A stretch of DNA of 64,000 nucleotides from Thiotrichales bacterium (GCA_050329935.1 JBHJOI010000067.1:13359-77358); one strand, 5' to 3'; shown: positions 9,765-59,190, counted from the first letter of the stretch. Numbers and translations: made by a program. The notes: a model not told the origin generated them from the sequence alone.

Positions 9765-10055
9765 TTAGCCGCAGCCGCAACCTGAGCTTTGTTTCGCGTG
9801 CTTGTCGCCGCCCTCGCCGGCCTCATTGCCTTGGCCGCCGCCGCTTTGGCCCTGACCCTGACCGCCGAGCTGCGATAGCAGTGCCTGTAATAGTTGCATG
9901 ATCTGCTGAAGAATCTGCGACATGTCGCCGCCGCCCGCCTTATTCGCGAACTCGCTGGCGCTATTCTGGGATGCGGATGAGCTCTGCGGTGCGTTGCCGC
10001 CGACATTCCCGATTTGGCTGGCTGAATTGCCAGCGCCTTGAATACCTTGAATCAT
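9765..10055 (-). CDS. Gly/Gln/Ser-rich low-complexity small protein (96 aa) with a central helical motif MSQILQQIMQLLQALLSQL and a C-terminal CGCG
   Basis: Good RBS (CAGGAG) and a sigma-70-like promoter (ATGACG-16-TAAAAT) upstream. Composition resembles harpin/Hpa1-like proteins; no homology established. Confidence 0.55.
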   Translation of the reverse strand: MIQGIQGAGNSASQIGNVGGNAPQSSSASQNSASEFANKAGGGDMSQILQQIMQLLQALLSQLGGQGQGQSGGGQGNEAGEGGDKHAKQSSGCGCG

Positions 10056-10387: not shown

Positions 10388-11683
10388 TCACTCCATCATG
10401 TCGTCGATGACGTTTTTGAACCAGCTATGGGCGTAGCTGACTTCGCGTTTGCGTTGCGCCGGACTGGCATTGATCGGTGACAGGCCGCCCGCGCCGGCGA
10501 TCGGTTCAATTGAGTTGTTGGCACTGTCCAGGGCGTAGACGTCGGCGACGGAGATGCCGAACTCCTCGCCGAGGATGCTATAGCAGGTGTTGACGAAGGT
10601 CGGTTCGCCGGGTTCGACGCCGTTGAATCGGTTGACGATGGCTGCGGCGGCAACCTTGGCTTGGGAGTTAGCGGCGTAGGCGGATTTGGGCATCTTGGCG
10701 GCATTGGAGGCGTCGCCGAGCACGTAGATGTCCTTGTGCCGGCTCGACTCGAATGTCCGCTTGTCGACCGGACACCAGTCGCCGTCGGCAAGGTCGGCGG
10801 CATAGGCAATTTGGCCGGCCTTTTGCGGCGGAATGATGTTGATCACGTCGCCCTTGAATTGTTCGACCTCGGCTTGCACCGTGCGCGAGCTGGGGTCCAG
10901 CGCCTCGACCTTACCGCCGGCCGCGGCGCCTACCCACTCGATCATGGCGTTGGCACCGCCGTAGCCGTAGAGCTGGGTCCAACCTTGGGTGAACAGGCCT
11001 TGCTTGGAGAAGCTGTCCTTCGGGTCGAGGATGATGATTTTTGCCCGTGGTTTATGGTGCTTGCAGTACATGGCGATCTGTGCCGCGCGCTCGTAGGGAC
11101 CGGGCGGGCATTTATACGGGTTGGGCGGCGCGACCAGGATGACCGTGCCGCCCTCCGGCATCGCCTCGATTTGTCGTTTGAGGGTCGTGGTTTGCGGGCC
11201 GGCAAACCAGGCGTGCGGAATGGTCTCGGCGACCGCTTCGCTATAGCCGTCGATGGCGCTCCATTTGAAGTCGACCCCGGGTGATACAACGCACGCGTCG
11301 TAGTCGAATTGCAGCCCACCCGCGGTGCGGACGATTTTCTTGCCGGGATCGATCGCGTCCACGCGCTCGATGACGATATTGACGCCGTGGCGTTTCAGGC
11401 TGTCGTAGCCGAAGGTGAGCGATTCAATGGTGCGATCGCCGCTGAGCACCTCGTTGCTCATGAAGCAGGAGGTATAGCGGTCGTGGGTCTCGATCAGCGT
11501 GACCTCGATCCGAGGGTCCAGCTTGCGGAGGTATTTCGCGGCGGTGCAGCCTCCGACGCCGCCACCCACGACGACCACCTTGCGCGTCGCGGCCAACAGC
11601 AGGCCCGGAAATCCGAGCAAACCGCCGGCGACCGTGGCCCCGCCGACGATACGGATGAAATCTCTTCGTTTGATGGCGCTCAT
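10388..11683 (-). CDS. fccB: Flavocytochrome c sulfide dehydrogenase, flavoprotein subunit FccB (Tat signal RRDFIR; FAD-binding VVVVGGGVGG)
   Basis: Twin-arginine signal, a Rossmann GGGxGG motif, and size and context with the diheme cytochrome gene upstream. Confidence 0.85.
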   Translation of the reverse strand: MSAIKRRDFIRIVGGATVAGGLLGFPGLLLAATRKVVVVGGGVGGCTAAKYLRKLDPRIEVTLIETHDRYTSCFMSNEVLSGDRTIESLTFGYDSLKRHGVNIVIERVDAIDPGKKIVRTAGGLQFDYDACVVSPGVDFKWSAIDGYSEAVAETIPHAWFAGPQTTTLKRQIEAMPEGGTVILVAPPNPYKCPPGPYERAAQIAMYCKHHKPRAKIIILDPKDSFSKQGLFTQGWTQLYGYGGANAMIEWVGAAAGGKVEALDPSSRTVQAEVEQFKGDVINIIPPQKAGQIAYAADLADGDWCPVDKRTFESSRHKDIYVLGDASNAAKMPKSAYAANSQAKVAAAAIVNRFNGVEPGEPTFVNTCYSILGEEFGISVADVYALDSANNSIEPIAGAGGLSPINASPAQRKREVSYAHSWFKNVIDDMME

Positions 11684-11702
11684 GGTGGTTCTCTGCCGAG
11701 GT

Positions 11703-12275
11703 TCAGTGCTGGCTGCCGTAATAGTGAATCAGCGCGGGCAAGGCTTGCGGGCCCTGCTCCGCGATCGCGGCGTCGACCTTGCGCTTCATCTTGCGCGGCC
11801 ACGCTCGATGTCCAGCGATAAAGTCGCTCATCGCGAAATCGAGATAAGGCATCCATTGTCCGGCGAGGGTTCCGGCGTCGCCGGCCTTGCCGCCTAGCTC
11901 GTGGCACTTTTCGCAATGCGCGTCGTGGAGCGATTTGCCCAGCGCAACCAGCGTGGGGTCCACGTCTTGCGATTGAGTGCGCAAGGGTTGCTTGAAGAAG
12001 AACAGGGCCATGCCACGAATTTGTTCGTCGCTGTAGCCCTTGGCGATGCGGTTCATGATCGTTGGGTTGCGGTGGTCCTTCTTGTAATCGAGCATCGCGT
12101 CGATAAACACGTCGGGATCCATGCCGGCGATCGACGGACTCGATGGCCCGACGCTGGAGCCGTCGGTGCCGTGACAACCCGCGCAAGTGAAGGCCAGCGC
12201 CTCGGGCGTGGGTCCGCCCGCGAGCGGCGCCGTGAACGGCAGGGCTAGCAAGGCGAGCAAAATGGTCGATCGCAT
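11703..12275 (-). CDS. fccA: Flavocytochrome c diheme cytochrome subunit FccA (two CxxCH; signal peptide from MRSTILLALLALP)
   Basis: CAGCH and CEKCH motifs. The start is placed at the Met with a GAGGGAG RBS; the listed longer ORF has an Arg-rich implausible N-terminus. Confidence 0.75.
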   Translation of the reverse strand: MRSTILLALLALPFTAPLAGGPTPEALAFTCAGCHGTDGSSVGPSSPSIAGMDPDVFIDAMLDYKKDHRNPTIMNRIAKGYSDEQIRGMALFFFKQPLRTQSQDVDPTLVALGKSLHDAHCEKCHELGGKAGDAGTLAGQWMPYLDFAMSDFIAGHRAWPRKMKRKVDAAIAEQGPQALPALIHYYGSQH

Positions 12276-12364
12276 GGACGTGATTCTCCCTCGGTTGGGG
12301 CGTGCGAGTCGTGTAACGCCTGACGCGTCCACGACCTGCTGTGTGTAACCGCTGTTCAACTTAA

Positions 12365-14362
12365 TCAATGCGGCATGCTGACGTAGCCGATGACCACGAG
12401 CGTCAGCAGCCCTAGACCGGCCATGATCAAAATTATGGCCAGCCATCGCGAGCCTGTTTCCATCGCCGCGGATGGCCGTTTCATCAGGTACTTCTCCAAC
12501 TTGCCATTGGCTTTCAGGCGCTCGTATTCGAGGCGATGTTCGAATTTGAACTCCTCGAGCGGCACCGCGCCGGTGAACATGATCGTGCTCATCGGGAAGC
12601 GGTCGGGGCGGAAGTGTGAGTTGAAGAAGTGCACCGTGAACAGGAACATCGTCGCCAGCAGGGCCTCCTCGGCGTGCACGATGGTCGCGATGTTGAACAC
12701 CCAGCCCGGCAGGAACGAGGCCGTCACGTGCGGGAAAAACAGCAACAGGCCGCTGAATCCGATCACAGCAGCGCCCCAGAATGGCGCCCAGTAATCGAAT
12801 TTCTGCCAGTAGGAATAGCGGTCGAATTGGGGCCGTTCGGCGCGACCAAAGAACCAGCGGAACATCGCCGCGACGTCACGCAGGTCTTGCAGGTTCGGCA
12901 CCATCGACGTCGGGCCGAACCACGAGAAGGTCTTGCGGTTGCGCCAGATGTTGGTGACGGCGATCGCGAGGTGGATCAAGAACACGCTAAGCCAGATGGT
13001 CGCCGCGGTGCGGTGCACGATCGCCTCGACCTTGGGTCCGCCGAGTAGCGACATCACGGTCGCGGCCCACGCGGTGTGCGAGAACAGTAACGTGGTGCCG
13101 CTGATCACAAGAATCATGGTGCTGACGGCGAACAGCAGGTGAATCCAGCGCCAGGTCGCACTGAAACGCCGGAAGTACACGGTGTCGTCACCTGGTGCGG
13201 GGTGGGCGAAACTCTTGCCTGCCTTGCGATCCCGGTACTCGCGGTAAAACCACAGGATCACGTGAATCCAGAAGAACGCCAGGATGCCGTAGATCAACGC
13301 CTCCATCAAACGGGCAGCGATCCACAGTCCCGGATACTTGTCGAAATCGCGCGAATCGCCGTGCGCATGGAAACCCAGGAATCCCTCCGGGGCGTCCTCA
13401 TGGCAGGTGTTGCAGGTCTTCAACCGGTTGTCGAGGTGAATGGTTGAGGCTGGATCGTCGACCCCGAGAATCTTATGTCCGCCGTGGCAGTCGAAACACT
13501 TGGCCGTATTGGTGTAACCCAGCTTGTTAACCTGGCCGTGATACGACGAGCGGTAGGTGCGCTGCGCGTCCTCGTGGCAGTTGCCGCAGTTCTGGGTAAT
13601 GGTGAGCATTACCCTGTCACCCTTGGGCGAGTCAATTTCGTGCGTGGTGTGGCAATCCGAGCATACCGCCGATTTACTTTCACCTTTCTCCAGCAAGGCC
13701 TTGCCGTGATCGGATTCGCGGTAGTCCGCGAGTTGCTTTTCGTGGCAGCGACCGCAGACCTCGGGGTTTTTCAAGCGGTGTTCGGCGCGTTGCAGGCTAC
13801 CCAAGGTGCCGACGTTGTGGGCATCGTGGCAGTCGAAGCAGGTGGCATTGGTGCGTGACTGATCGCGCTTGCTCGGCTGAGCGTGCACCGAGCGCATGAA
13901 ACTGTCGATTTGTTGCACCACCACACCCAATCGTTCATGGGTGCCGTTCGGGTCGTCCTTATGCTCGGCCCAGGTGTTTTGGTGGCATTCGACGCAGCCG
14001 ACGACCACGCTCGGTGCATCGCGGTGCGGCACGCGGGTGATTGTGGCATGACAATCCGTGCAGCGCCGTTCGCCATGCACGCTCGCCTCGAACACGTTAG
14101 GGGGTACGAATATGTCGACCGTGCTGCCGTCGTCGCGCACGTCGGTTTTATCGTGCTCGTCGCCGTGACATTTCAGGCAGCGGGCGTTGGGAATGATGCG
14201 TTGACCGGTCGCGAGATCGAACGTGGAGGCGGATTTTCCGCTGTCCACGACGTTTGGACTGGCGTTGCCGTGAACGGATGGGAGACTAAATAGGCCGATC
14301 GCTAGCGCCAAGAGCCAGACGAAGGTATTAGGCGCGATTTTCAGCATTGTTGTTGTCCCCAC
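12365..14362 (-). CDS. Multiheme cytochrome c (9 CxxCH motifs) fused to a C-terminal multi-TM His-rich cytochrome b-like membrane domain; 665 aa
   Basis: Motifs CLKCH, CTDCH, CVECH, CFDCH, CGRCH, CSDCH, CGNCH, CFDCH, CNTCH, then at least 5 predicted TM helices with conserved His. Confidence 0.8.
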   Translation of the reverse strand: MGTTTMLKIAPNTFVWLLALAIGLFSLPSVHGNASPNVVDSGKSASTFDLATGQRIIPNARCLKCHGDEHDKTDVRDDGSTVDIFVPPNVFEASVHGERRCTDCHATITRVPHRDAPSVVVGCVECHQNTWAEHKDDPNGTHERLGVVVQQIDSFMRSVHAQPSKRDQSRTNATCFDCHDAHNVGTLGSLQRAEHRLKNPEVCGRCHEKQLADYRESDHGKALLEKGESKSAVCSDCHTTHEIDSPKGDRVMLTITQNCGNCHEDAQRTYRSSYHGQVNKLGYTNTAKCFDCHGGHKILGVDDPASTIHLDNRLKTCNTCHEDAPEGFLGFHAHGDSRDFDKYPGLWIAARLMEALIYGILAFFWIHVILWFYREYRDRKAGKSFAHPAPGDDTVYFRRFSATWRWIHLLFAVSTMILVISGTTLLFSHTAWAATVMSLLGGPKVEAIVHRTAATIWLSVFLIHLAIAVTNIWRNRKTFSWFGPTSMVPNLQDLRDVAAMFRWFFGRAERPQFDRYSYWQKFDYWAPFWGAAVIGFSGLLLFFPHVTASFLPGWVFNIATIVHAEEALLATMFLFTVHFFNSHFRPDRFPMSTIMFTGAVPLEEFKFEHRLEYERLKANGKLEKYLMKRPSAAMETGSRWLAIILIMAGLGLLTLVVIGYVSMPH

Positions 14363-14660
14363 GGGCGTTTCGCCTAATGGAAAGTGGTCAGGGTAAATTC
14401 ATTAGTATATCTATGGTATTCCACGGTTAAAGTCAAACAAAAAGCGAACCTAACTGCGTGATTATTCGATTTTGGCGTCGCCTCGATTTTTGAAGTTCAT
14501 TGCCGTGAACGGGCCGTTCTCGCGAGGGTTAACTGCTTTCTCAAGGAAAGAATATCGAGCTGTTTATCGCGTGGCGCGCGCAACGTCGGAGAGCGTTGGG
14601 TAGTGGACGAGCGGCGTGTATGGGTACGCTGAGTGGCATGACCCTCGCGTTGACAGCGGA

Positions 14661-14689
14661 TTGACTATATTAGTAGATGATTATATACT
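14661..14689 (+). promoter_or_regulatory. Near-consensus sigma-70 promoter TTGACT-17bp-TATACT on the plus strand
   Basis: -35 TTGACT at 14661-14666, a 17-bp spacer, and -10 TATACT at 14684-14689, inside an AT-rich gap. An inverted repeat TATTAGTA-N10-TACTAATA (14669-14694) overlaps it. Confidence 0.45.
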
Positions 14690-14734
14690 AATAATATCGA
14701 AATACATCGCGTCTCCCCTGAACCGGAGGAAACT

Positions 14735-14884
14735 ATGAGCTGGTTGGTCTGGGCTATTATTTTACTCGCGGGATTGGTCTCCACGCTGTCGGGGTTCACG
14801 ATTCTTGGCATCATCATTCTGGTGATCGGGCAAGCCACTTATCTGGCGTATCGCAAGTTTCGCACCCCAAGATTAAATCCTTAG
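14735..14884 (+). CDS. Unlisted small hydrophobic ORF, 49 aa (MSWLVWAIILLAGLVSTLSGFTILGIIILVIGQATYLAYRKFRTPRLNP), two predicted TM helices
   Basis: Perfect RBS GGAGGA 5 nt before the ATG, about 45 nt downstream of the strong promoter. It is below the 60-aa track cutoff. Confidence 0.4.
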   Translation: MSWLVWAIILLAGLVSTLSGFTILGIIILVIGQATYLAYRKFRTPRLNP

Positions 14885-15106
14885 CGGCACAGGGTGCGGG
14901 AGCGTATCTAGACGCCGCGCACTCATACCTTGTCATCAACAGCGGCGACACAGGCGAATAAGCGGACGCAACGAACATCGCTCGGCGGGGTTCCGAAGTA
15001 ATGATCAACGTTGAATGCGCGTTCAGCTTCGGCCGTGGCCGACAAATCCTCGCCTGAAAGCAATGCGGAACCTAAAACCCCGATACCAATAGCCAGCTTT
15101 CGCGCG

Positions 15107-16126
15107 TCAGTGACGTGTCGTCTGTGCCCGCGAAAGCCTTAGGGTTGCCCGCAGACCGCGCTCCGATCGATTGCTTACCTGAAGTTCGCCGCCGTGCAAT
15201 ATCGCGATGTCCTTTACGATGGCCAGCCCGAGGCCGCTACCACCGGTGGCACGGTTGCGCGAGGCATCGACGCGGTACCAGGCGTCGGTGACGCGGGTCA
15301 GTTCTTGCTCGGGTATGCCGGGCCCATCGTCTTCAACCGTGATGCTCAGTCCCAACTTGTCGTCGTCAATCCGAATGATCACGTTTTCGCCGTACTTCAG
15401 GCCGTTGTCGAGCAGGTTGGCGAGAGCGCGCTTGAGCGCGGTGAGTCGCCCTGTGTAGGGGCCGATCGCGCGTCCGGCAACGCGGACCGAACGCCCGATG
15501 AGTTCGGCATCCGCCGCAAGGCTACGCACTAGCGCGTTCATGTCGATGGCGCGGCGCGGCTCGGTCTCGCGCAGATCGCGCAGGTAGTCGAGGGTTGCGT
15601 TGAGCATGGCGTGCATGTCGTCGACATCCGCGACGATCTGGTGACGCAGGCTGTCATCGGTGACCAGTTCGGCTCGCAATCGCAGGCGGGTCAACGGGGT
15701 TCGCAAGTCGTGGGAGACGGCGGCGAGCGCGCGGCCGCGTTCGGCGATCAAGCGCTGCAGGCGCAGCTGCATGCGATTGAAGGCCGCGGCGGCGCTACGA
15801 ACCTCGGTCGGTCCCTGCTCGGGCATCGGAGGTGATTCAATGTCACGACCGAAGGCGTCGGCCGCCGCCGCGAGATTTTGTAGTGGTCGGGTTATCAGGC
15901 GCACTGCGACCAGCGACACAACGATCACCGCCGTCAGCGTCAACGCCAGGTGAATGCCGAACCGGGTCGGCAGATCGGGAAAATGGCCGTGCGCTTGTTG
16001 GATCAGCGTCGCGCGCTCGGCCAGATGCAGCCACAGGTTGATGAACTGAGAGGCGAGCAGACCGGTGACGAGGATCAGCGTCATCCGGCCAAACAGCGAG
16101 ACGGGAAGTAGGCGCGGCGAACGCAT
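15107..16126 (-). CDS. Sensor histidine kinase (2 TM, HAMP, HisKA with AVSHDLRTPL, HATPase_c), EnvZ-like
   Basis: H-box AVSHDLRTPLTRL plus N, G1 (DDGPGI) and G2 (GGSGLGL) boxes. Confidence 0.85.
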   Translation of the reverse strand: MRSPRLLPVSLFGRMTLILVTGLLASQFINLWLHLAERATLIQQAHGHFPDLPTRFGIHLALTLTAVIVVSLVAVRLITRPLQNLAAAADAFGRDIESPPMPEQGPTEVRSAAAAFNRMQLRLQRLIAERGRALAAVSHDLRTPLTRLRLRAELVTDDSLRHQIVADVDDMHAMLNATLDYLRDLRETEPRRAIDMNALVRSLAADAELIGRSVRVAGRAIGPYTGRLTALKRALANLLDNGLKYGENVIIRIDDDKLGLSITVEDDGPGIPEQELTRVTDAWYRVDASRNRATGGSGLGLAIVKDIAILHGGELQVSNRSERGLRATLRLSRAQTTRH

Positions 16127-16129
16127 GGG

Positions 16130-16867
16130 CTAGTCTCCGGTGGGGTGGGACTGTCCGGTAACCTCGGCGGCCAGCACGTAGCCCTTGCCGCGTATGGTCC
16201 GAATCAGCCGCGGTTCGCGATGATCGTCGCCCAGCCGCTGGCGTAACCGGCTCATCTGCACGTCGATGGCGCGATCGAACGGTTCCGCTTCGCGGCCGTG
16301 GATCAGTTCCATCAATTGATCGCGACTGAGTACCCGATTCGAATGTTCGAGTAGCACGCGCAGTAAATGATACTCCGCGCCGGACAGCGGCACGACGACG
16401 CCATCGGGGTTGGCCAGGGTGCGGGTCGCGGTGTCGAGTCGCCAGCCGGCGAAAACCAGGCAGCGCCGGGGCTCCGGGCGCAGATTGGGCGGCAAGGCGC
16501 GAGTGCGGCGCAGGATCGACTTGATGCGTGCCAGCAGTTCGCGCGGGTTGAAGGGCTTGACGAGGTAGTCGTCGGCGCCCATTTCGATGCCGACGATGCG
16601 GTCGGTGTCCTCGCCGCGCGCGGTCAGCATCAACACCGGTAACGACGACTTGGCGCGCAGGTCGCGACAGAGAATAAGTCCATCCGTATCCGGCAGCATC
16701 AGGTCAAGCACCACCAGATCGAACTCTTGGCGCTCAAGCGTGTGCCACATGTCGCGGCCGTCGCTCGCCGCGCTGGCGGCGAAGCCGTTGCGCGCCAGAT
16801 AGTCAACGAGTAAGCGACGGATTTCGGGATCGTCGTCGACGATGAGGATGCGGTCAGAAGATTCCAT
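16130..16867 (-). CDS. OmpR-family response regulator (REC + winged-helix), start at MESSDRILIVDDD
   Basis: Receiver motifs DDD, D (VLDLMLPDTDG) and K. C-terminal OmpR/PhoB-type wHTH (RGKGYVL). Confidence 0.85.
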   Translation of the reverse strand: MESSDRILIVDDDPEIRRLLVDYLARNGFAASAASDGRDMWHTLERQEFDLVVLDLMLPDTDGLILCRDLRAKSSLPVLMLTARGEDTDRIVGIEMGADDYLVKPFNPRELLARIKSILRRTRALPPNLRPEPRRCLVFAGWRLDTATRTLANPDGVVVPLSGAEYHLLRVLLEHSNRVLSRDQLMELIHGREAEPFDRAIDVQMSRLRQRLGDDHREPRLIRTIRGKGYVLAAEVTGQSHPTGD

Positions 16868-17042
16868 ACCGTTTTTATACCTGCCACACGGGTGCGTGAC
16901 CAACCCCCGAGGGATTGATTTGTAACCTAGCGTAACAAACCGGCCGTCTGCAACACTACGATGCAATTTCACGGCGGACGGTGATGCAAACAAGGCGGCT
17001 AACGGCTGAAATGCAGGGCACTGCTACCACGAGAGGTTGTGC

Positions 17043-17783
17043 ATGAACGTGATATTTGGCTTTGGTGAACGGGTGGAGGGCTACGACGTGCCCGTGCTCA
17101 ACGAACGCGAGGTTCGCGCGAGCGCCGGCATTCTGTTTTTTTTCGCGATGCTTTCTTTCTTGAACGCATGGCTGGTGGGTGACTTTCGTCCGACGCGGGT
17201 CTTCGTGGTGGCTTTCTTGATCGATTTCATCATTCGCGTTTTCGTCAATCCGCGTTTCGCGCCGACCATGATTCTAGGGCGATTTGTGGTCAGCAAGCAG
17301 GTACCCGAATATGTCGGCGCGCGACAGAAGCGCTTTGCCTGGGGCATCGCGCTAGCCCTGGCGGTCGCGATGTTTTACCTGGTGGTGCTCAATCGAATGG
17401 TCGGGCCGATCAATTTGTTGATCTGCGCGAGCTGTTTGCTGTTGCTGTTCTTCGAAGCGGCGTTTGGTATTTGTCTGGCATGCAAGATCCACGGCTGGTT
17501 TTTCAAGGATAAGACGCGGCTGTGCCCCGGCGGGACGTGCGAACTGCTGGAGCGGGCGCCAATTCAACGCATCGATGTCGCCCAGGTCGGGGTTGTCGCC
17601 GCGTTCCTGTTGACCATGGGACTGGTCATCCAGAATTTCGCGCCCCCACACGCCGATGCAGTACCGCTGTCGACTTCGACGCCACCGGTTGAGCCAGGCG
17701 CGGACGGCGAATGCACGCCGCCCGATTGGGTCGTCGCGATGGGACATGCCGAAAAATGGAAACTGCACCATAATTGCAAATGA
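17043..17783 (+). CDS. DUF4395-family membrane protein
   Basis: Polytopic hydrophobic protein with an FGxCxAC motif, recalled as DUF4395-like. Identity by memory only. Confidence 0.55.
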   Translation: MNVIFGFGERVEGYDVPVLNEREVRASAGILFFFAMLSFLNAWLVGDFRPTRVFVVAFLIDFIIRVFVNPRFAPTMILGRFVVSKQVPEYVGARQKRFAWGIALALAVAMFYLVVLNRMVGPINLLICASCLLLLFFEAAFGICLACKIHGWFFKDKTRLCPGGTCELLERAPIQRIDVAQVGVVAAFLLTMGLVIQNFAPPHADAVPLSTSTPPVEPGADGECTPPDWVVAMGHAEKWKLHHNCK

Positions 17784-52135: not shown

Positions 52136-52441
52136 CGCAGTCGGGTTTTGGGAATCGAACTGGCGTCCGCAGCGCGCGACCTGGCAGCTCAAACCACGCT
52201 ATACCTGAGACCGAGGTCATGCTTGCTCTCGGACCTGGCAAGGCGATGGCTAGCTTTGTTGTCAACGACGATTCCCGAGAACGTGCTTCCCAGTAACGTC
52301 ATCCGCTTCGGATCGTGGCCGCTGGCACTTCTGGTTTGGCGGGTGAGAAATGCCGAGGCCGGCGCTTGGCGTTCGACGTGAGGCGTGTTTTGCACTTCGG
52401 AGTCCGACTTTCGGCGAACTTGCCTTATTCTTGTCGATGTT

Positions 52442-53911
52442 ATGACCCTAGATTTCGCCACCCTCGATGCCCTGCGCACGCACCATCCCGCGTGGCGATT
52501 GTTGCGTTCTGACCATGCCGCATTGGTGGCGAGTTTTTTGCATCGGGTTTTCGTGGCACCCAACGTGCGGGTAATGGCGGCGGCCGATCTTGCCGAGCTG
52601 CTAGAAGACGAGCTGTATGCGCTGCGCTTGCAACTGGGCGAGGCGGCGTTTCCGAAACCCGCGCTGGAGTACCTGAACGATTGGGCCGCGGCGGACAAGG
52701 GCTGGCTGCGCAAGTTCTACAAGCCCGGCACCGATGAGGCGCAGTTCGATCTGACGCCGGCCACCGAGAAGGCGATCGCCTGGTTGTTGCAACTTGCCGA
52801 GCGCCAGTTCGTGGGCACCGAGTCGCGGTTGCTCACCTTGTTTGCCTTGCTGAAACAAATGAGCGAGGGCAGCGAGACTGATCCGGAAAAGCGTATCGCC
52901 GAGCTGCACCGCAAGCGCGGCGAACTGGACGCCGAGATCGCGCGGGTGCTGGCTGGCGATGCGCCGCTACTGGACGATACGGCGCTGAAGGACCGGTTCC
53001 AGCAATTCATGCAGGGTGCGCGCGAGTTGCTCACCGACTTTCGCGAGGTGGAGCACAACTTCCGCCAGCTCGATCGGAGCGTGCGTGAACGCATCGCGTT
53101 GTGGGAGGGGAGCAAGGGCGAGTTGCTTGAAGAGATCATGGGCGAGCGCGACGCGATCGCCGATTCCGACCAAGGCAAGAGTTTCCGTGCGTTCTGGGAC
53201 TTTTTGTTGTCCAGCCGTCGCCAGGAGGAGCTGAGCGCGTTGTTGGAGCGGGTGCTGACCTTGCCGGCCGTGGCTGCGTTGCGACCGGATGCCCGCACTC
53301 GCCGCGCGCACTACGATTGGATGGAGGCGGGTGAGCACACCCAGCGCACCGTGGCGGCCTTGTCCCAGCAGTTGCGTCGCTTTCTCGATGATCAGGCCTG
53401 GTTGGAGAACCGGCGCATCATGGACATTTTGCATGGCATCGAGAGCAAGGCGCTGGCGTTGCGAGCATCACCACCTACCGGCATGGTGATGGAAATGGCG
53501 GAGTCGTGTGCCGACGTCGAGTTGGCGATGGAGCGACCCTTGTTCACGCCAGCGGTGAAACCCGTGATCAATAGTCTGATTTTGCCGGCGGGGGACGCGG
53601 ACATCGATCCGTCGGCCCTGTTCGACCAAGTGGTGGTGGACAAGGCACGGCTGACCCGCCATATCCGCCGCGCTTTGCAGGACAAGGCCCAAGTCACGCT
53701 GCGCGAGTTGGTGGCTACCCAGCCGCTACGGCATGGCCTGGCCGAGTTGGTCGCCTATCTGCAACTCGGCAGCGACAGCTTCAACGCGGTGATGGACGAG
53801 GACTCACCCGAGTCCGTGCACTGGCAGGCCCGGGCGGCGACTGGTGAACCCGTGACCCGATCCGCGCGGCTGCCCCGGGTGATCTTCATGCGCGGATCCG
53901 GAACAACTTGA
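52442..53911 (+). CDS. jetA: Wadjet JetA-like (DUF3375 / MukF-like kleisin) protein
   Basis: About 490 aa, first gene of a four-gene operon with the JetABCD size profile. Family call from architecture and recollection. Alternative start at 52385. Confidence 0.75.
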   Translation: MTLDFATLDALRTHHPAWRLLRSDHAALVASFLHRVFVAPNVRVMAAADLAELLEDELYALRLQLGEAAFPKPALEYLNDWAAADKGWLRKFYKPGTDEAQFDLTPATEKAIAWLLQLAERQFVGTESRLLTLFALLKQMSEGSETDPEKRIAELHRKRGELDAEIARVLAGDAPLLDDTALKDRFQQFMQGARELLTDFREVEHNFRQLDRSVRERIALWEGSKGELLEEIMGERDAIADSDQGKSFRAFWDFLLSSRRQEELSALLERVLTLPAVAALRPDARTRRAHYDWMEAGEHTQRTVAALSQQLRRFLDDQAWLENRRIMDILHGIESKALALRASPPTGMVMEMAESCADVELAMERPLFTPAVKPVINSLILPAGDADIDPSALFDQVVVDKARLTRHIRRALQDKAQVTLRELVATQPLRHGLAELVAYLQLGSDSFNAVMDEDSPESVHWQARAATGEPVTRSARLPRVIFMRGSGTT

Positions 53912-53930
53912 ATCGAGTATTTGAAGTCGG

Positions 53931-54626
53931 ATGAAACAAGCGTTCACCATCGAGCCGGCGACGACGGCGCCAACGCCTGATCTGTCGGTGCTGTTGATCG
54001 GTTTGCTCAAAGGCGTGCTCTACCGTGAGAGCGATGAGCGCCAATGGGCGGCATTGCTGAATTTGCAGGCGCGGGTACGGGATTTCGTCGCGGTGCTCAA
54101 TCTGGATTTGATCCTGGACGAGGCCGAGGGGTATGCCTTTCTGAAAGGTCGTCCCGAGCCGGCCGCGGACGATCCGGCGCCGCGACTGCCGCGCCTGGTT
54201 GCCCGCCGACCCTTGTCGTTTCCGGTGAGTTTGTTGTTGGCCTTGCTACGCAAGAAGCTGGCCGAGTTCGACGCGGGCGGCGGCGACACTCGGTTGGTGC
54301 TCACCCGCGACGAGATTGTCGATCTGGTGCGGGTGTTTCTGCCCGTGGGTCCCAACGAGGCCCGGTTGATTGATCAAATCGAGTCCACGATTAACAAGGT
54401 CGCCGAACTCGGCTTCCTGCACAAACTCAAACCCGCCGGCGGGGCCTCGGGGCCGCCGAGTTACGAAGTCCGACGCATCCTTAAGGCGTTTGTCGATGCG
54501 CAATGGTTGGCCGAATTCGATGCTCGACTGGCGGTGTATCGGTCCGCGCTGTCGGACCTGGTCGGTGGCCAGTCGGCGTCGCCGAGGGCGGGTGAAGAGG
54601 CCGCGGCGAGCGAGGTCGCGCCATGA
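53931..54626 (+). CDS. jetB: Wadjet JetB-like (DUF4194 / MukE-like) protein, 231 aa
   Basis: Size and position between jetA and the SMC-like ATPase. 4-bp overlap with jetC. Confidence 0.7.
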
Positions 54627-57600
54627 GTGAGTCGCAATCCCTCGCGCTGGACTTCTTAGCCGACGACGCGTTGTCGGGGTTTCGATTGACGCGTCTGGAA
54701 GCATTCAACTGGGGCACGTTCGACGGCCAGGTATGGACGCTGCAACTTGACGGCAAGAATGGTTTGCTGACTGGCGACATCGGTTCCGGTAAATCCACCC
54801 TGGTCGACGCGATCACCACGCTGCTGGTGCCGGCCAATCGGATCGCGTACAACAAGGCCGCCGGCGCGGACAGCAAGGAGCGCAGCCTGCGTTCCTACGT
54901 GTTGGGGCACTACAAATCCGAGCGCAACGAAGTCACCGGCGCGGCCAAGCCTGTGTCGTTGCGCGACCACAACAGCTACTCGGTCGTACTGGGCGTGTTT
55001 CATAACGCCGGTTACGACCAGACGGTGAGTCTGGCGCAGGTGTTCTGGATGAAGGATCCACAGGGACAGCCGGCGCGCTTTTTTCTCGGGGTGGAACGCG
55101 AATTGTCGATTTCGGTCGATTTCGCCAATTTCGGCGCCGACATCGCCACGTTGCGCAAAAAACTGCGGGCGCTGGGGGCCGATCTGCACGACAGTTTTCC
55201 ACCTTACGCCGCCTGGTTTCGCCGTCGCTTCGGCATCGAGAACGATCAGGCGCTCGAGTTGTTCCACCAGACGGTGTCGATGAAATCGGTGGGCAATCTG
55301 ACCGATTTCGTCCGCAGCCACATGCTGGAGCCGTTCGAGGTCGCCCCGCGCATTCAGGCGCTGATCGGCCATTTCGATGATCTCAACCGCGCGCATCAGG
55401 CGGTGCTCAAGGCGCAGCGGCAAGTGGAACTGCTGACGCCGCTGGTGGCTGACTGTGCTCGTCACGCCGAACTGGTGGCGGAAGTGAACCACTTGCGCCA
55501 CTGTCGCGAAAGTCTGCGCGCGCACTTCGCCCGCCTGAAGTTGGCGTTGCTCGACAAACGCCTCGGCTTGCTGGAGGACGAATGGCACAAGGCCGATGGG
55601 CAGGCGCGGCGGCTGGAGCTCGCGCGCGAGACACAAGACCAGCAAGTCGATGCGCTGAAGCAGGCCATCAGCGACAACGGCGGCGATCGCCTGGAACGGC
55701 TCGCCGCCGAGATCCGCGTCAAGGAACACCTGCGGGATGCACGCCAGTCCAAGGCCGCGCGGTATGTCGAACTCGCGGCCATGCTCGGCGAACCCAATGC
55801 GGCGGACGTTGCCGCGTTCTCCGCGCAGCGGGCGCGCTTCAAGGGTTGGCGTGAGACGCTTCGCAATCGCGATGCCGATTTGCAAAACGCACTGACGGAG
55901 CACAGCGTGAGTCTGCGCCAGGGCAAGCTGGAGCATGACCAACTCAGCGCCGAGATCGGCAGCCTCAAGCGCCGGCGTAGCAATATCGACGACCAACAAA
56001 TCCAGATTCGCACCGCGCTGTGCGCCGCATTGCGGATGGACGCCGATGACATGCCATTCGTTGGCGAGTTGATCCAGGTCCGCGAGGATGAGCGCGATTG
56101 GGAAGGTGCGGCCGAACGTCTGCTGCGAGGCTTCGGCCTGGCGTTGCTGGTGCCGGACGAGCACTACCCGCGCGTGGCCGAGTGGGTGGATGCCAGCCGT
56201 TTGCGCGGGCGTCTGGTGTATTTCCATGTGCGTCCCCGTAAGGCGGCGGAATTGCCCGGACTGCATCGGGATTCACTGGTACGCAAGCTCGCCATCAAGC
56301 CGGATACGTCCCATTACGACTGGCTGGAGCGTGAGCTTGCGCACCGTTTCGATGTCGCGTGCTGCGCGACGCAAGCGCAGTTCCGCCGCGAAACGCGCGC
56401 CATCACCCGCGCGGGCCAGATCAAGGACCCCAGCGGCCGGCACGAGAAAGACGATCGCCACCGCATCGACGACCGCGGCCGCTACGTGCTCGGCTGGAGC
56501 AACAGCGCCAAGATCGCCGCGCTGGAGGGCAAACTTCGCCAGCTTGAGCACCGCTTGGGCGAACTCGGAAGCCAGATCGGGGCGATCGAGGCCGAGCGCG
56601 GCGGACTCCAGAGTCGGCTCGACGCACTCACGCGCCTGGAGGAGTTCACGACCTTCGACGAACTCGACTGGCCGAGTGTGGCGGCGGCCATTGCCGCGCT
56701 CGAAGACGAGCGCCGGCAGTTGGAATCAGCCTCCGACATCCTCAAGCAATTAAATGAACGCCTGCGGGAACTGCGTCAAACGCTACGGGATACCGAAACC
56801 GAACTACGCACCGCGCGTGACAAGCGCGCCAAGGTGGAGCAGCGACGCTCGGATGCGCGTGAACTGCGTCAGCAGACCGCCGCGCTGATCCCGGACGTGG
56901 CCGTGGACAACGCGCTGTCAGCGACGCTGGAAGCCCTGCGCGCCGAGGCCCTGGGCGAGCATCAATTGACCGTCGAATCCTGCGATCACCGCGAGCAGGA
57001 CGTGCGCGCCTTTGTACAGGCGCGGATCGACGCGGAGGATGCGCGGCTCAAGCGCCTGGCCGAAAAGATCATCAAGGCGATGGCGTCGTTCAAGGACGCG
57101 TTCAAACTCGAAACGGCCGAGATCGACGCCAGCCTCGAAGCGGCCTTCGAGTATGAGAATCTGCTCACGCAGTTGAATCGCGATGACCTGCCGCGTTTCG
57201 TGGCACGCTTCAAGGAGCTGCTGAACGTCAACACGATCAACGAAATCGCGAACTTCAATGCACAGCTGGCGCGCGAGCGCGAAACTATCAAGGAGCGAAT
57301 CGCGCACATCAACAAGTCCCTCGGCGAGATCGATTACAACCCGGGCCGCTACATCGTGCTGGAATCACAAGCGAGCCCCGACGCCGAGATCCGTGATTTT
57401 CAGCAGGATCTACGCAGCTGCACCGAAGGCGCGGTCACGGGTTCCGAGGATGTGCAGTATTCGGAGGCCAAGTTTCTGCAAGTCAAATCCATCATCGATC
57501 GGTTTCGCGGCCGCGAGGGCTTGTCCGAGCAGGATCGACGCTGGACCGCGAAGGTCACCGACGTGCGCAACTGGTTTCTGTTCGCCGCCAGCGAGCGGTG

Positions 57601-58015
57601 GCGCGAGGACAACACCGAGCACGAACATTATTCCGACTCGGGCGGCAAATCGGGTGGGCAGAAAGAGAAACTGGCCTACACCATCCTCGCCGCTAGCCTG
57701 GCCTACCAGTTTGGCCTGGAGTGGGGCGCGGTGCGTTCGCGTTCGTTCCGATTCGTCGTCATCGACGAGGCGTTTGGCCGGGGCTCGGATGAGTCCGCTC
57801 AGTACGGCTTGAAGCTGTTCCGGCAACTCAACCTGCAATTGCTGATCGTCACGCCGCTGCAGAAGATCCACATCATCGAGCCGTTTGTATCCAGTGTCGG
57901 CTTCGTGCACAACGAGGGCGGTCGCGCGTCCAAACTGCGCAACCTGTCCATCGAGGAGTATCGGGCACAGAAGTCGGCCATCACCTCGCGGGCGACACCG
58001 GTGGTCATGCGGTGA
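54623..58015 (+). CDS. jetC: Wadjet JetC-like SMC/MukB-like ABC ATPase (1130 aa)
   Basis: N-terminal Walker [15 protein letters not shown], a long coiled-coil middle, C-terminal signature/Walker [14 protein letters not shown]. Confidence 0.85.
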
Positions 58016-59190
58016 CCTGGACCACGCCCCGGGAACTCAAGGCACAGCTCGCGCGACTGTGGACGCGGGGGGAATTGCTGCGCGACGTCGTGACCGGAAA
58101 CACGCGCTTCCCATTGCGGCTGACTTGCAAGGGTCCAGGCTCGGCGGACATCACGGATCGTTTCGATCGGGTGCGCGCGTGGGCAACGGAGCTGGCGAGC
58201 GCCGCCCCGTTGCGGGTGGAGTGGCAGGACGTGCGTCACCGGGTTCAAGGCGCGCAACGCTTGCCGAGTAGCGTTTGGATCGACTCGGCGGAGCGCGCGG
58301 TCGCATGGCTCGGGAAACTGCGCGACTGGGAACGCTTTGCCAACCAGGTCGAGCAGACGCGGCAACTTGAACCCTTGCTATTGCCCTGGCTCGCGAAGCG
58401 TCCCCTGCAAGCACTGGAACGGGTCGACGAGTGGCCGCGTCTGATGGCGGTGGTGGACTGGCTCAAGCGCCATCCGCGGCCGGATATCTATTTGCGTCAA
58501 GTCGAATTGCCCGGCGTGCACAGCAAATTCATCGAGGCTCATCGCGCGGTGTTGAGCGAGTTGCTCGACCTGGCCTTGCCCGCCGCCTGCGTGGATGCCG
58601 CGAAAACCGGGGCCAGCCAGTTTGCGGCCCGATACGGCTTTCGCGAGAAGCCCGCTCGGATTCGCTTCCGAATACTCGACCCAGGGATTCCATGCGTGCC
58701 GGGTGCCCCCTGTCCCGATCTCACGCTCGACGCCGAGAGCTTTAGCCGGCTCGCGCTCGAGGTTCAGCGGGTGCTGATCACCGAGAATGAAACCAACTTT
58801 CTCGCGTTGCCCAACGTCACCGGAGCGATCGCCATCTTCGGGGCTGGATACGGTTGGGATACCTTGGCGCGAGCCCGCTGGCTGACGCGGTGCGCGATCC
58901 ACTATTGGGGCGATATCGATACCCACGGGTTCGCGATCCTGGATCAATTGCGAGGTCATTTTGGCCACGTCAGATCGCTGTTGATGGACCGCGCCACCCT
59001 GGAGGCGCATGCGGCCAGTTGGGGAATCGAAGATCGGCCGCTGCGCGTCGATTTGCATCGGTTGACGCCGGAGGAACTCGATTTGTACGACGAACTGCGC
59101 GACAACCGCATCCGCAAGGGGCTGCGGTTGGAGCAGGAACACCTCGGCTTTGGCTGGGTACGCGACCGGCTCGATCGGCTATCGTGGTGA
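58012..59190 (+). CDS. jetD: Wadjet JetD-like (DUF2220, topoisomerase VI-A-like Toprim nuclease) protein, 392 aa
   Basis: Toprim-like [13 protein letters not shown] motif near the C-terminus. 4-bp overlap with jetC. Confidence 0.8.

Follow-up and report, generated by a model that had tools for sequence, protein, structure and literature searches.

Flavocytochrome c sulfide dehydrogenase, with its flavin subunit FccB and heme subunit FccA, is soluble in the solved structures from Allochromatium vinosum (PDB 1fcd) and Thermochromatium tepidum (PDB 3vrd). In A. vinosum, loss of fccAB leaves the rate of sulfide oxidation at the wild-type level, and FccAB is absent from several organisms that oxidise sulfide (PMC11267869). 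Membrane proteins that fuse multiheme c-type and b-type cytochrome domains constitute the CbcL/MtoC/MtrH family of quinol oxidases and quinone reductases, catalogued by Zhong and Shi in 2018 (PMC6295460). Here we analyse a stretch of 64,000 nucleotides (nt) from a Thiotrichales bacterium (GCA_050329935.1 JBHJOI010000067.1:13359-77358; hereafter the window), in which a gene for a c/b fusion cytochrome of this family precedes fccA and fccB. This linkage is kept in most assessable members of a clade of the family marked by a Gln residue, and the encoded proteins may deliver electrons from sulfide to the quinone pool.

Organization of the mhc-b, fccA and fccB genes

Three open reading frames (ORFs) on the minus strand occupy the whole interval 10388-14362; they are co-oriented, as the initial annotation had reported.

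12365..14347, minus strand: c/b fusion cytochrome gene (MtoC/MtrH/CbcL family), 660 amino acids (aa); supported by the ORF, a public-assembly gene call and homologues
11703..12275, minus strand: fccA, 190 aa including a signal peptide; heme subunit of flavocytochrome c, a diheme cytochrome c with two CxxCH motifs and structure matches
10388..11683, minus strand: fccB, Tat-exported FAD subunit of sulfide dehydrogenase, 431 aa; Pfam and structure matches

The initial annotation placed fccAB upstream of the fusion gene, but the order is the reverse: in the direction of transcription the fusion gene is 5'-most, followed after 89 nt by fccA and, after a further 19 nt, by fccB. The large ORF, described as a 665-aa protein, is real. 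However, its likely start is the ATG at 14347 (660 aa) rather than the GTG five codons upstream at 14362 (665 aa), because public gene callers use this ATG, the N-termini of homologues align there, and a GGGGA lies 9 nt upstream. For fccA, the longest ORF reaches 12446, which is an over-extension of the 190-aa gene starting at 12275.

The G+C content is about 60% across the window, which matches a 96-kb contig of a stromatolite metagenome in ENA (ERZ909567, PRJNA315555) at 99.93% identity. Over the 21,984 nt at window positions 2365-24348, the window and the ENA contig that encodes an identical fusion protein (locus L001) differ at 14 mismatched positions and by one gap of 1 nt; the window therefore represents the same population in a slightly different assembly, or a slightly different strain of it. 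We regard the three genes as a putative operon, mhc-b, fccA and fccB, of an uncultured sulfur-oxidising gammaproteobacterium.

The fccA and fccB products bear out their earlier identification as a diheme cytochrome c and a Tat-exported FAD subunit. The N-terminus of FccB carries a twin-arginine motif (MSAIKRRDFI), and its sequence matches the Pfam families FCSD_central (159.7 bits) and FCSD-flav_bind (86 bits). FccB aligns with the flavin subunits of T. tepidum (3vrd_B, 491 bits) and A. vinosum (1fcd_A, 479 bits), and with sulfide:quinone oxidoreductase (SQR) structures at about 50 bits. Counted along the pairwise alignments with 3vrd_B and 1fcd_A, Cys73, Cys192 and Cys367 correspond to Cys42, which links FAD, and to the active-site pair Cys161 and Cys337 in FCSD numbering, so that all three key residues are kept. 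FccA has two CxxCH motifs, CAGCH and CEKCH, and matches the heme subunits 3vrd_A (153 bits, residues 23-190) and 1fcd_C (151.5 bits). The periplasmic diheme shuttle PdsA was also considered for this middle gene; its NCBIfam score of 78.7 bits, against a cut-off of 330, reflects general c4-like similarity, and FccA is the correct assignment.

Judged by homology, FccA and FccB are thus an orthodox flavocytochrome c, clear orthologues of both solved subunits that retain the FAD-binding Cys as well as the active-site pair, and are predicted to have sulfide:cytochrome c activity. The difference lies in their setting: the solved complexes are soluble, whereas in the window fccAB comes after the gene for a membrane cytochrome. 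The fccAB genes of A. vinosum have Alvin_1094 and Alvin_1095 next to them and not a c/b fusion gene.

Predicted heme ligation in the fusion protein

The fusion protein is divided into three parts, numbered here along the 660-aa form.

14267..14347, minus strand: residues 1-27 (MLKIAPNTFVWLLALAIGLFSLPSVHG), apparent Sec-type signal peptide, read from the sequence; hydrophobicity peaks at residues 4-22
13334..14266, minus strand: residues 28-338, periplasmic c-type domain for nine hemes; Pfam matches, one CxxCH motif per heme and ten other His residues that are invariant
12368..13333, minus strand: membrane domain with six transmembrane (TM) helices, residues 339-660; AlphaFold2, Foldseek, profile search against the PDB and Lys/Arg distribution

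Nine CxxCH motifs had been noted in the N-terminal 330 or so residues; we count exactly nine, at residues 57, 96, 118, 170, 198, 229, 254, 284 and 312, all within the first 316 residues. In an alignment of 25 homologues, every one of these motifs is invariant, as are ten His residues outside them (His91, His108, His155, His177, His214, His236, His270, His291, His304 and His329). These ten are therefore enough for the bis-His ligation of every c heme. The domain matches the Pfam entries Cytochrome_C7, Cytochrom_c3_2 and MtrC/MtrF domain II/IV above threshold, and the fusion gene is the sole multiheme ORF in the window. A direct sequence search of the PDB with the whole fusion protein gave nothing useful, the best match being NrfB with an E-value of 0.015. 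Membership in the NapC/NirT/NrfH family, a comparison put forward in the initial annotation, was rejected: TIGR03153 (NrfH) scores 20.7 bits against a cut-off of 134.2 and covers residues 190-243 only, and the membrane anchor is C-terminal and polytopic, not N-terminal.

AlphaFold2 places the six long helices of the membrane half at residues 339-375, 397-421, 438-469, 514-537, 549-578 and 627-657, with predicted local distance difference test (pLDDT) scores of about 70-83. A hydropathy scan at a threshold of 1.5 gives five peaks that match five of these helices, and no peak for helix 549-578. One helix forms an anchor (TM0), four build an FdnI-like core and one more is added at the C-terminus; four of the six long helices contain His residues, consistent with the earlier description of a His-containing polytopic domain. 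When the membrane half was compared with the PDB by Foldseek, the top match was FdnI, the cytochrome b556 subunit of Escherichia coli formate dehydrogenase-N (1kqf_C; probability 1.00, TM-score 0.71 on the target), followed by the hydrogenase-1 cytochrome b (4gd3_A, HyaC).

The heme-ligand mapping that had been proposed as a test, with the absence of a bis-His pattern as the refuting outcome, supports a cytochrome b-type domain in the C-terminal half. Among 20 family members down to 32% identity, the alignment of the C-terminal domain contains exactly four invariant His residues, His403, His445, His558 and His573. The profile of this alignment finds 1kqf_C with an E-value of 4.8e-9, and the four residues align with FdnI His18, His57, His155 and His169, the ligands of both FdnI b hemes. 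They are located on core helices I, II and IV, with two on helix IV, which is the FdnI/HyaC pattern. The predicted heme pairs are His403/His573 on the cytoplasmic side and His445/His558 on the periplasmic side, as in FdnI. Loops predicted to be cytoplasmic contain 7 and 10 Lys/Arg residues and both short periplasmic loops contain none, which places His403/His573 near the cytoplasmic face and His445/His558 near the periplasmic face. The same distribution agrees with a c domain in the periplasm and with loops on the cytoplasmic side next to His403, His573 and the YWQK motif (Tyr513-Trp-Gln515-Lys516), which is located at the cytoplasmic start of the third core helix.

In addition to fold and ligands, the fusion protein shares with FdnI a Lys residue (Lys516, FdnI Lys114). 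The two proteins are only 16% identical, and the fusion protein differs in having two extra helices, in carrying its periplasmic partner as a fused domain rather than a separate subunit, and in the spacing of the ligands on the last core helix (15 residues, against 14 in FdnI). The earlier suggestion of matching the domain to PF01292 did not hold at the family threshold (19.6 bits against 30.1), and TIGR01583 scores 30.6 bits against 115.85. Orthology with FdnI was therefore rejected; since the fold and ligands match, the relation is one of remote homology. Two further His residues, His362 in the anchor helix and His578 five residues past His573, are at least 90% conserved across the superfamily and predicted near the cytoplasmic face. 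They are outside the four FdnI-type ligands and might serve a quinone or proton site or bind a further cofactor.

Placement in the CbcL/MtoC/MtrH family

A word-indexed search found more than 2,100 homologues of the fusion protein, of which the best 120 are all about 640-690 aa long and have identities of 60% or more. Among the named sources are Candidatus Thiodiazotropha, Sedimenticola, Thiohalomonas denitrificans, a tubeworm symbiont and Candidatus Venteria. Among representatives of 50%-identity clusters, an exhaustive HMMER search found 775 clusters at E < 1e-30, in which the same C-terminal domain stands behind 1 to 22 CxxCH motifs. The family was missed in the initial annotation. The 2018 survey had already listed close relatives: its Table S2 contains proteins of T. 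denitrificans, RIFOXYD12_FULL_61_37, Thiodiazotropha, Sedimenticola, Thiocystis and a Riftia symbiont (PMC6295460). The fusion protein is 63% identical to the T. denitrificans protein (P0077) over 99% of its length and 64% identical to that of RIFOXYD12_FULL_61_37 (locus L013), and the heme and helix positions given there for these relatives match its own. With its multiheme N-terminal domain, bis-His count, six TM helices, diheme b domain and homology, the fusion protein is by sequence a member of the CbcL/MtoC/MtrH family; this assignment is based on identity to the Table S2 members. It is a new member of a catalogued, largely uncharacterised family.

MtoC of Dechloromonas aromatica (Daro_1404) and Gallionella capsiferriformans (Galf_2006) and MtrH of Rhodoferax ferrireducens (Rfer_4073) belong to the same length class (655-673 aa) and have six TM helices at matching positions and nine CxxCH motifs with nearly the spacing of the fusion protein. 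The CxxCH spacing of MtoC (40, 25, 51, 31, 31, 25, 30, 28) is nearly equal to that of the fusion protein (39, 22, 52, 28, 31, 25, 30, 28). The genomic partners differ: the MtoC and MtrH genes are in mtoAB/mtrAB porin-cytochrome clusters for extracellular electron transfer, whereas the partner in the window is fccAB, and no porin-cytochrome genes lie within 10 kb on either side of the fusion gene.

CbcL of Geobacter sulfurreducens (GSU0274), compared by its published description, resembles the fusion protein in its nine bis-His c hemes, six TM helices and HydC/FdnI-like diheme b domain, and it has the same count of ten extra conserved His residues (PMC9129911). It is shorter (619 aa), and its heme spacing (23, 25, 23, 24, 29, 28, 43, 28) is unlike that of the fusion protein. 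According to the survey, CbcL is only about 35% identical to MtoC/MtrH, and some genes of the family adjoin genes for c-type cytochromes (PMC6295460).

Conserved fccAB linkage in a Gln-type clade

To place the locus among its relatives, 80 loci were taken from GTDB species genomes, fccA and fccB were mapped by tblastn, and a neighbour-joining tree of the fusion proteins was built. Spurious antisense ORFs (clusters 9, 16 and 17), which arose from longest-ORF calling where loci are GC-rich, were left out. In the tree, the fusion protein of the window falls in a monophyletic clade with 34 other loci. Adjacent fccAB genes were found in 26 of the 33 assessable clade loci (79%): in 23 they are immediately downstream on the same strand, and in three (Tepidiphilus, Thiobacillus and a Taylorina symbiont) they are upstream in divergent orientation. 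Outside the clade, fccAB occurred in the fetched flanks of one of 42 loci, which are of the Glu type described below, and there it is not adjacent. The arrangement, which had been thought less common, is thus not rare within its clade.

The fccAB-linked carriers include Chromatiaceae, Sedimenticola, Thiodiazotropha, Thiobacillus, Tepidiphilus, Rhodocyclaceae and Rhodospirillales, and several orders are represented from the Gamma-, Beta- and Alphaproteobacteria. The FccB proteins encoded beside the fusion gene are of two divergent types, 46-54% and 69-79% identical to FccB of the window. On a contig whose fusion protein is identical to the T. denitrificans entry (locus L083), the first gap in the gene trio is 18 nt and the second junction is an overlap of 8 nt. 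This conserved synteny supports a functional link between the fusion protein and FccAB, and with it the tie that the initial annotation had suggested.

The clade also differs from the rest of the family at a residue of the predicted quinone site. The motif YWQKFDYW, containing Gln515, is present in all 120 close homologues. At this position, 100 of the 102 scorable representatives of the wider family have Glu and two have Asp, and Glu is also found in the sister clade without fccAB. In the profile alignment, Gln515 pairs with FdnI Gln113, next to the shared Lys. FdnI Gln113 reportedly lines the menaquinone/2-heptyl-4-hydroxyquinoline N-oxide (HQNO) pocket beside His169 (Jormakka and colleagues, 2002); a literature search did not confirm this, and we take it as a lead only.

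In the literature that we searched, we found no described link of CbcL or MtoC with flavocytochrome c or fccAB and no mention of the locus tags of the relatives, and the lucinid-symbiont papers retrieved mention no multiheme partner. As far as we found, the conserved fccAB linkage and the Gln marker appear to be new.

Other partners were seen in and outside the clade. In part of the Gln-type clade (loci L005, L007, L008, L014, L017 and L033), the fusion gene is beside one gene for a diheme cytochrome c of c4-like type and another for a secreted protein, about 318 aa long, that is built from ankyrin repeats. This pair replaces or accompanies fccAB, and its hosts include Escarpia tubeworm symbionts and a Sedimenticola metagenome-assembled genome. 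Among the Glu-type loci, L054, L059, L060, L063, L070, L078 and L082, with fusion proteins about 50% identical to that of the window, have a neighbouring gene for an MtrB/PioB-like outer-membrane protein of about 760 aa and one for a second multiheme protein. Tetraheme class-I cytochromes are encoded downstream, and several of these loci also have protoporphyrinogen oxidase genes (HemY- or HemG-like). As judged by eye from all these neighbours, they are probably extracellular electron transfer clusters.

Proposed electron path and alternatives

We propose that electrons pass from sulfide through FccB, FccA, the nine-heme wire and the two b hemes to quinone, probably with charge separation across the membrane, and we hold this path with roughly even confidence. 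Sulfide would be oxidised by FccB, the Tat-exported periplasmic flavoprotein, and the electrons passed to the two FccA hemes. They would then enter the nine bis-His c hemes of the 660-aa membrane protein, which may act as a periplasmic wire, and cross the membrane by two stacked b hemes, ligated by His445/His558 and then by His403/His573. Quinone would be reduced at a cytoplasmic-face site around Tyr513-Trp-Gln515-Lys516 and His573. With the site on this face, as in formate dehydrogenase-N, protons would be taken up from the cytoplasm, and the module would be an electrogenic sulfide:quinone oxidoreductase that generates proton-motive force. Textbook potentials give an overall driving force of about 0.37 V between sulfide and ubiquinone, enough to push electrons against the membrane potential.

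The protein identities, architecture, conserved heme ligands, topology logic and conserved synteny on which this path builds are established; direct contact between FccA and the fusion protein, the way in which electrons flow, the place of the quinone site and electrogenicity are what we infer, and the last would follow by analogy with formate dehydrogenase-N.

Several points weigh against the proposed path. The position of the quinone site is likewise drawn from the analogy with FdnI. The nine-heme domain is poorly modelled by AlphaFold2 (pLDDT below 50), and the model gives no view of docking. The c domain of CbcL, a quinol oxidase working in the opposite direction, has an apparent potential (Eapp) of -194 mV (PMC9129911); if the hemes of the fusion protein were as low, transfer from FccA to the fusion protein would be uphill. 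Lastly, seven assessable clade loci (L003, L007, L008, L011, L014, L017 and L034) have no fccAB nearby, and in L007, L008, L014 and L017 the fusion gene is instead paired with genes for another diheme cytochrome c and the secreted ankyrin-repeat protein. FccAB is therefore not an obligate partner.

These seven loci lead to the alternative that the fusion protein is a general hub, exchanging electrons between several periplasmic cytochromes and the quinone pool, with FccAB as one partner among others or merely co-regulated without contact. Some of the seven have the c4-like diheme cytochrome and ankyrin-repeat protein and some have the fusion gene alone, and fusion genes in other parts of the family lie next to genes for tetraheme class-I cytochromes or MtrB/PioB-type porins, or next to genes resembling those of alternative complex III (ACIII). 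However, an adjacency of 79% across orders, in two gene arrangements and with tight or overlapping genes in relatives, goes beyond loose co-regulation, and we consider a general hub rather improbable.

A reversal of the proposed path is less probable still. Here the fusion protein, like CbcL, would oxidise quinol at the cytoplasmic face, and the membrane potential would drive the export of electrons to FccA/FccB or another low-potential periplasmic acceptor, for example when stored sulfur or polysulfide is reduced to sulfide in anoxic conditions. CbcL, the sole member studied both genetically and biochemically, is a menaquinol oxidase that feeds PpcA and serves low-potential acceptors, the direction opposite to the one that we propose for the fusion protein. 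The architecture is reversible in principle, and the 2018 survey found no sequence feature that separates oxidases from reductases (PMC6295460). On the other hand, sulfide oxidation is both the known activity of FCSD and a trait of the carriers, which are lithotrophs and phototrophs, and electron transfer from quinol to the sulfur/sulfide couple is thermodynamically very unfavourable with ubiquinone. The Gln residue in place of the family's Glu at the predicted quinone site also argues against simple functional identity with CbcL.

A role in extracellular electron transfer, either Fe(II) oxidation or mineral reduction as for MtoC/MtrH with the position of fccAB incidental, is suggested by the nearly identical heme spacing and by relatives about 50% identical that adjoin genes for MtrB/PioB-like porins and multiheme cytochromes, but it has the least support and is highly improbable, because the window holds no porin-cytochrome genes, nor any other multiheme ORF, while no porin-cytochrome genes were seen beside the fusion gene in the Gln-type clade loci and the survey notes homologues in bacteria with no such apparent role (PMC6295460).

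Flanking genes and other features of the window

Upstream of the fusion gene, the following features were found.

14348..15106, minus strand: upstream intergenic region, 759 nt; presumed operon promoter region, from sequence reading only
15107..16126, minus strand: HAMP/HisKA histidine kinase; Pfam
16130..16867, minus strand: OmpR-type response regulator; Pfam

The 759-nt region is AT-rich near the fusion gene, with a TTGACT about 85 nt before the ATG, and a 49-aa ORF is called in it on the opposite strand (14735..14884). A promoter and terminator scan found no convincing minus-strand sigma-70 site, its result being no better than that with shuffled sequence, and an Rfam scan of the operon and this region gave no match. 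The operon promoter is presumably located in the region. The kinase and regulator genes are co-oriented with the operon beyond this gap. Since a similar pair is near the fusion gene in one other locus only (L026), the pair, a possible regulator, is not a conserved part of the cluster. A gene at 17037-17783 on the plus strand, divergent from that of the response regulator, encodes a DUF4395 membrane protein with a Cys-rich C-terminal extension, and beyond it the source contig has genes for an ABC transporter, a rhodanese, DsbB and DsbA.

Directly downstream of fccB, a 96-aa ORF (9765-10055, minus strand) is called as a gene in the public assembly. Its product is rich in Gly, Gln and Ser, ends in GCGCG and has no Pfam match, and it is not conserved downstream of fccB in the other loci. 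A terminator-like hairpin follows at 9731-9701.

Far from the operon, at 52385-59190 on the plus strand, four co-oriented genes encode a DUF3375 protein (508 aa), a product of 231 aa, an SbcC/Rad50-like ATPase (1130 aa) and a product of 392 aa. With Pfam matches for the first and third genes, this layout is reminiscent of an anti-plasmid condensin system of the Wadjet (JetABCD) or MksBEF-like kind.

Implications for sulfide oxidation

The overall reaction proposed for the module is that of SQR, and FccB and SQR have a common flavoprotein fold. However, SQR consists of one monotopic flavoprotein and passes electrons straight to quinone without transmembrane electron transfer, whereas the module would use eleven c and two b hemes. 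The route would enter the respiratory chain at the level of quinone and not of cytochrome c, differing from both SQR and the usual transfer from soluble FccAB to cytochrome c, and it may include an energy-conserving step that is absent from SQR.

A wider claim is that the Gln-type clade is the missing physiological acceptor of flavocytochrome c, forming with FccAB a thirteen-heme electrogenic sulfide:quinone oxidoreductase, and that the change from Glu to Gln marks a switch from quinol oxidase to quinone reductase. We regard this claim as tentative and on balance doubtful. If true, the module would be half of a redox loop, like formate dehydrogenase-N, and would conserve more energy than oxidation via SQR or the soluble cytochrome c route.

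The protein family itself is known. Its conserved association with fccAB offers, in a membrane cytochrome predicted to interact with quinone, a concrete candidate route for FccAB electrons into the quinone pool, and Gln515 in place of Glu is a candidate marker residue for the FccAB-linked function. The module is found in free-living and symbiotic sulfur oxidisers, among them Thiodiazotropha, Sedimenticola, Chromatiaceae and Thiobacillus. The role of flavocytochrome c in vivo and the identity of its electron acceptor are a long-standing question, which the fccAB linkage and the Gln marker make testable.

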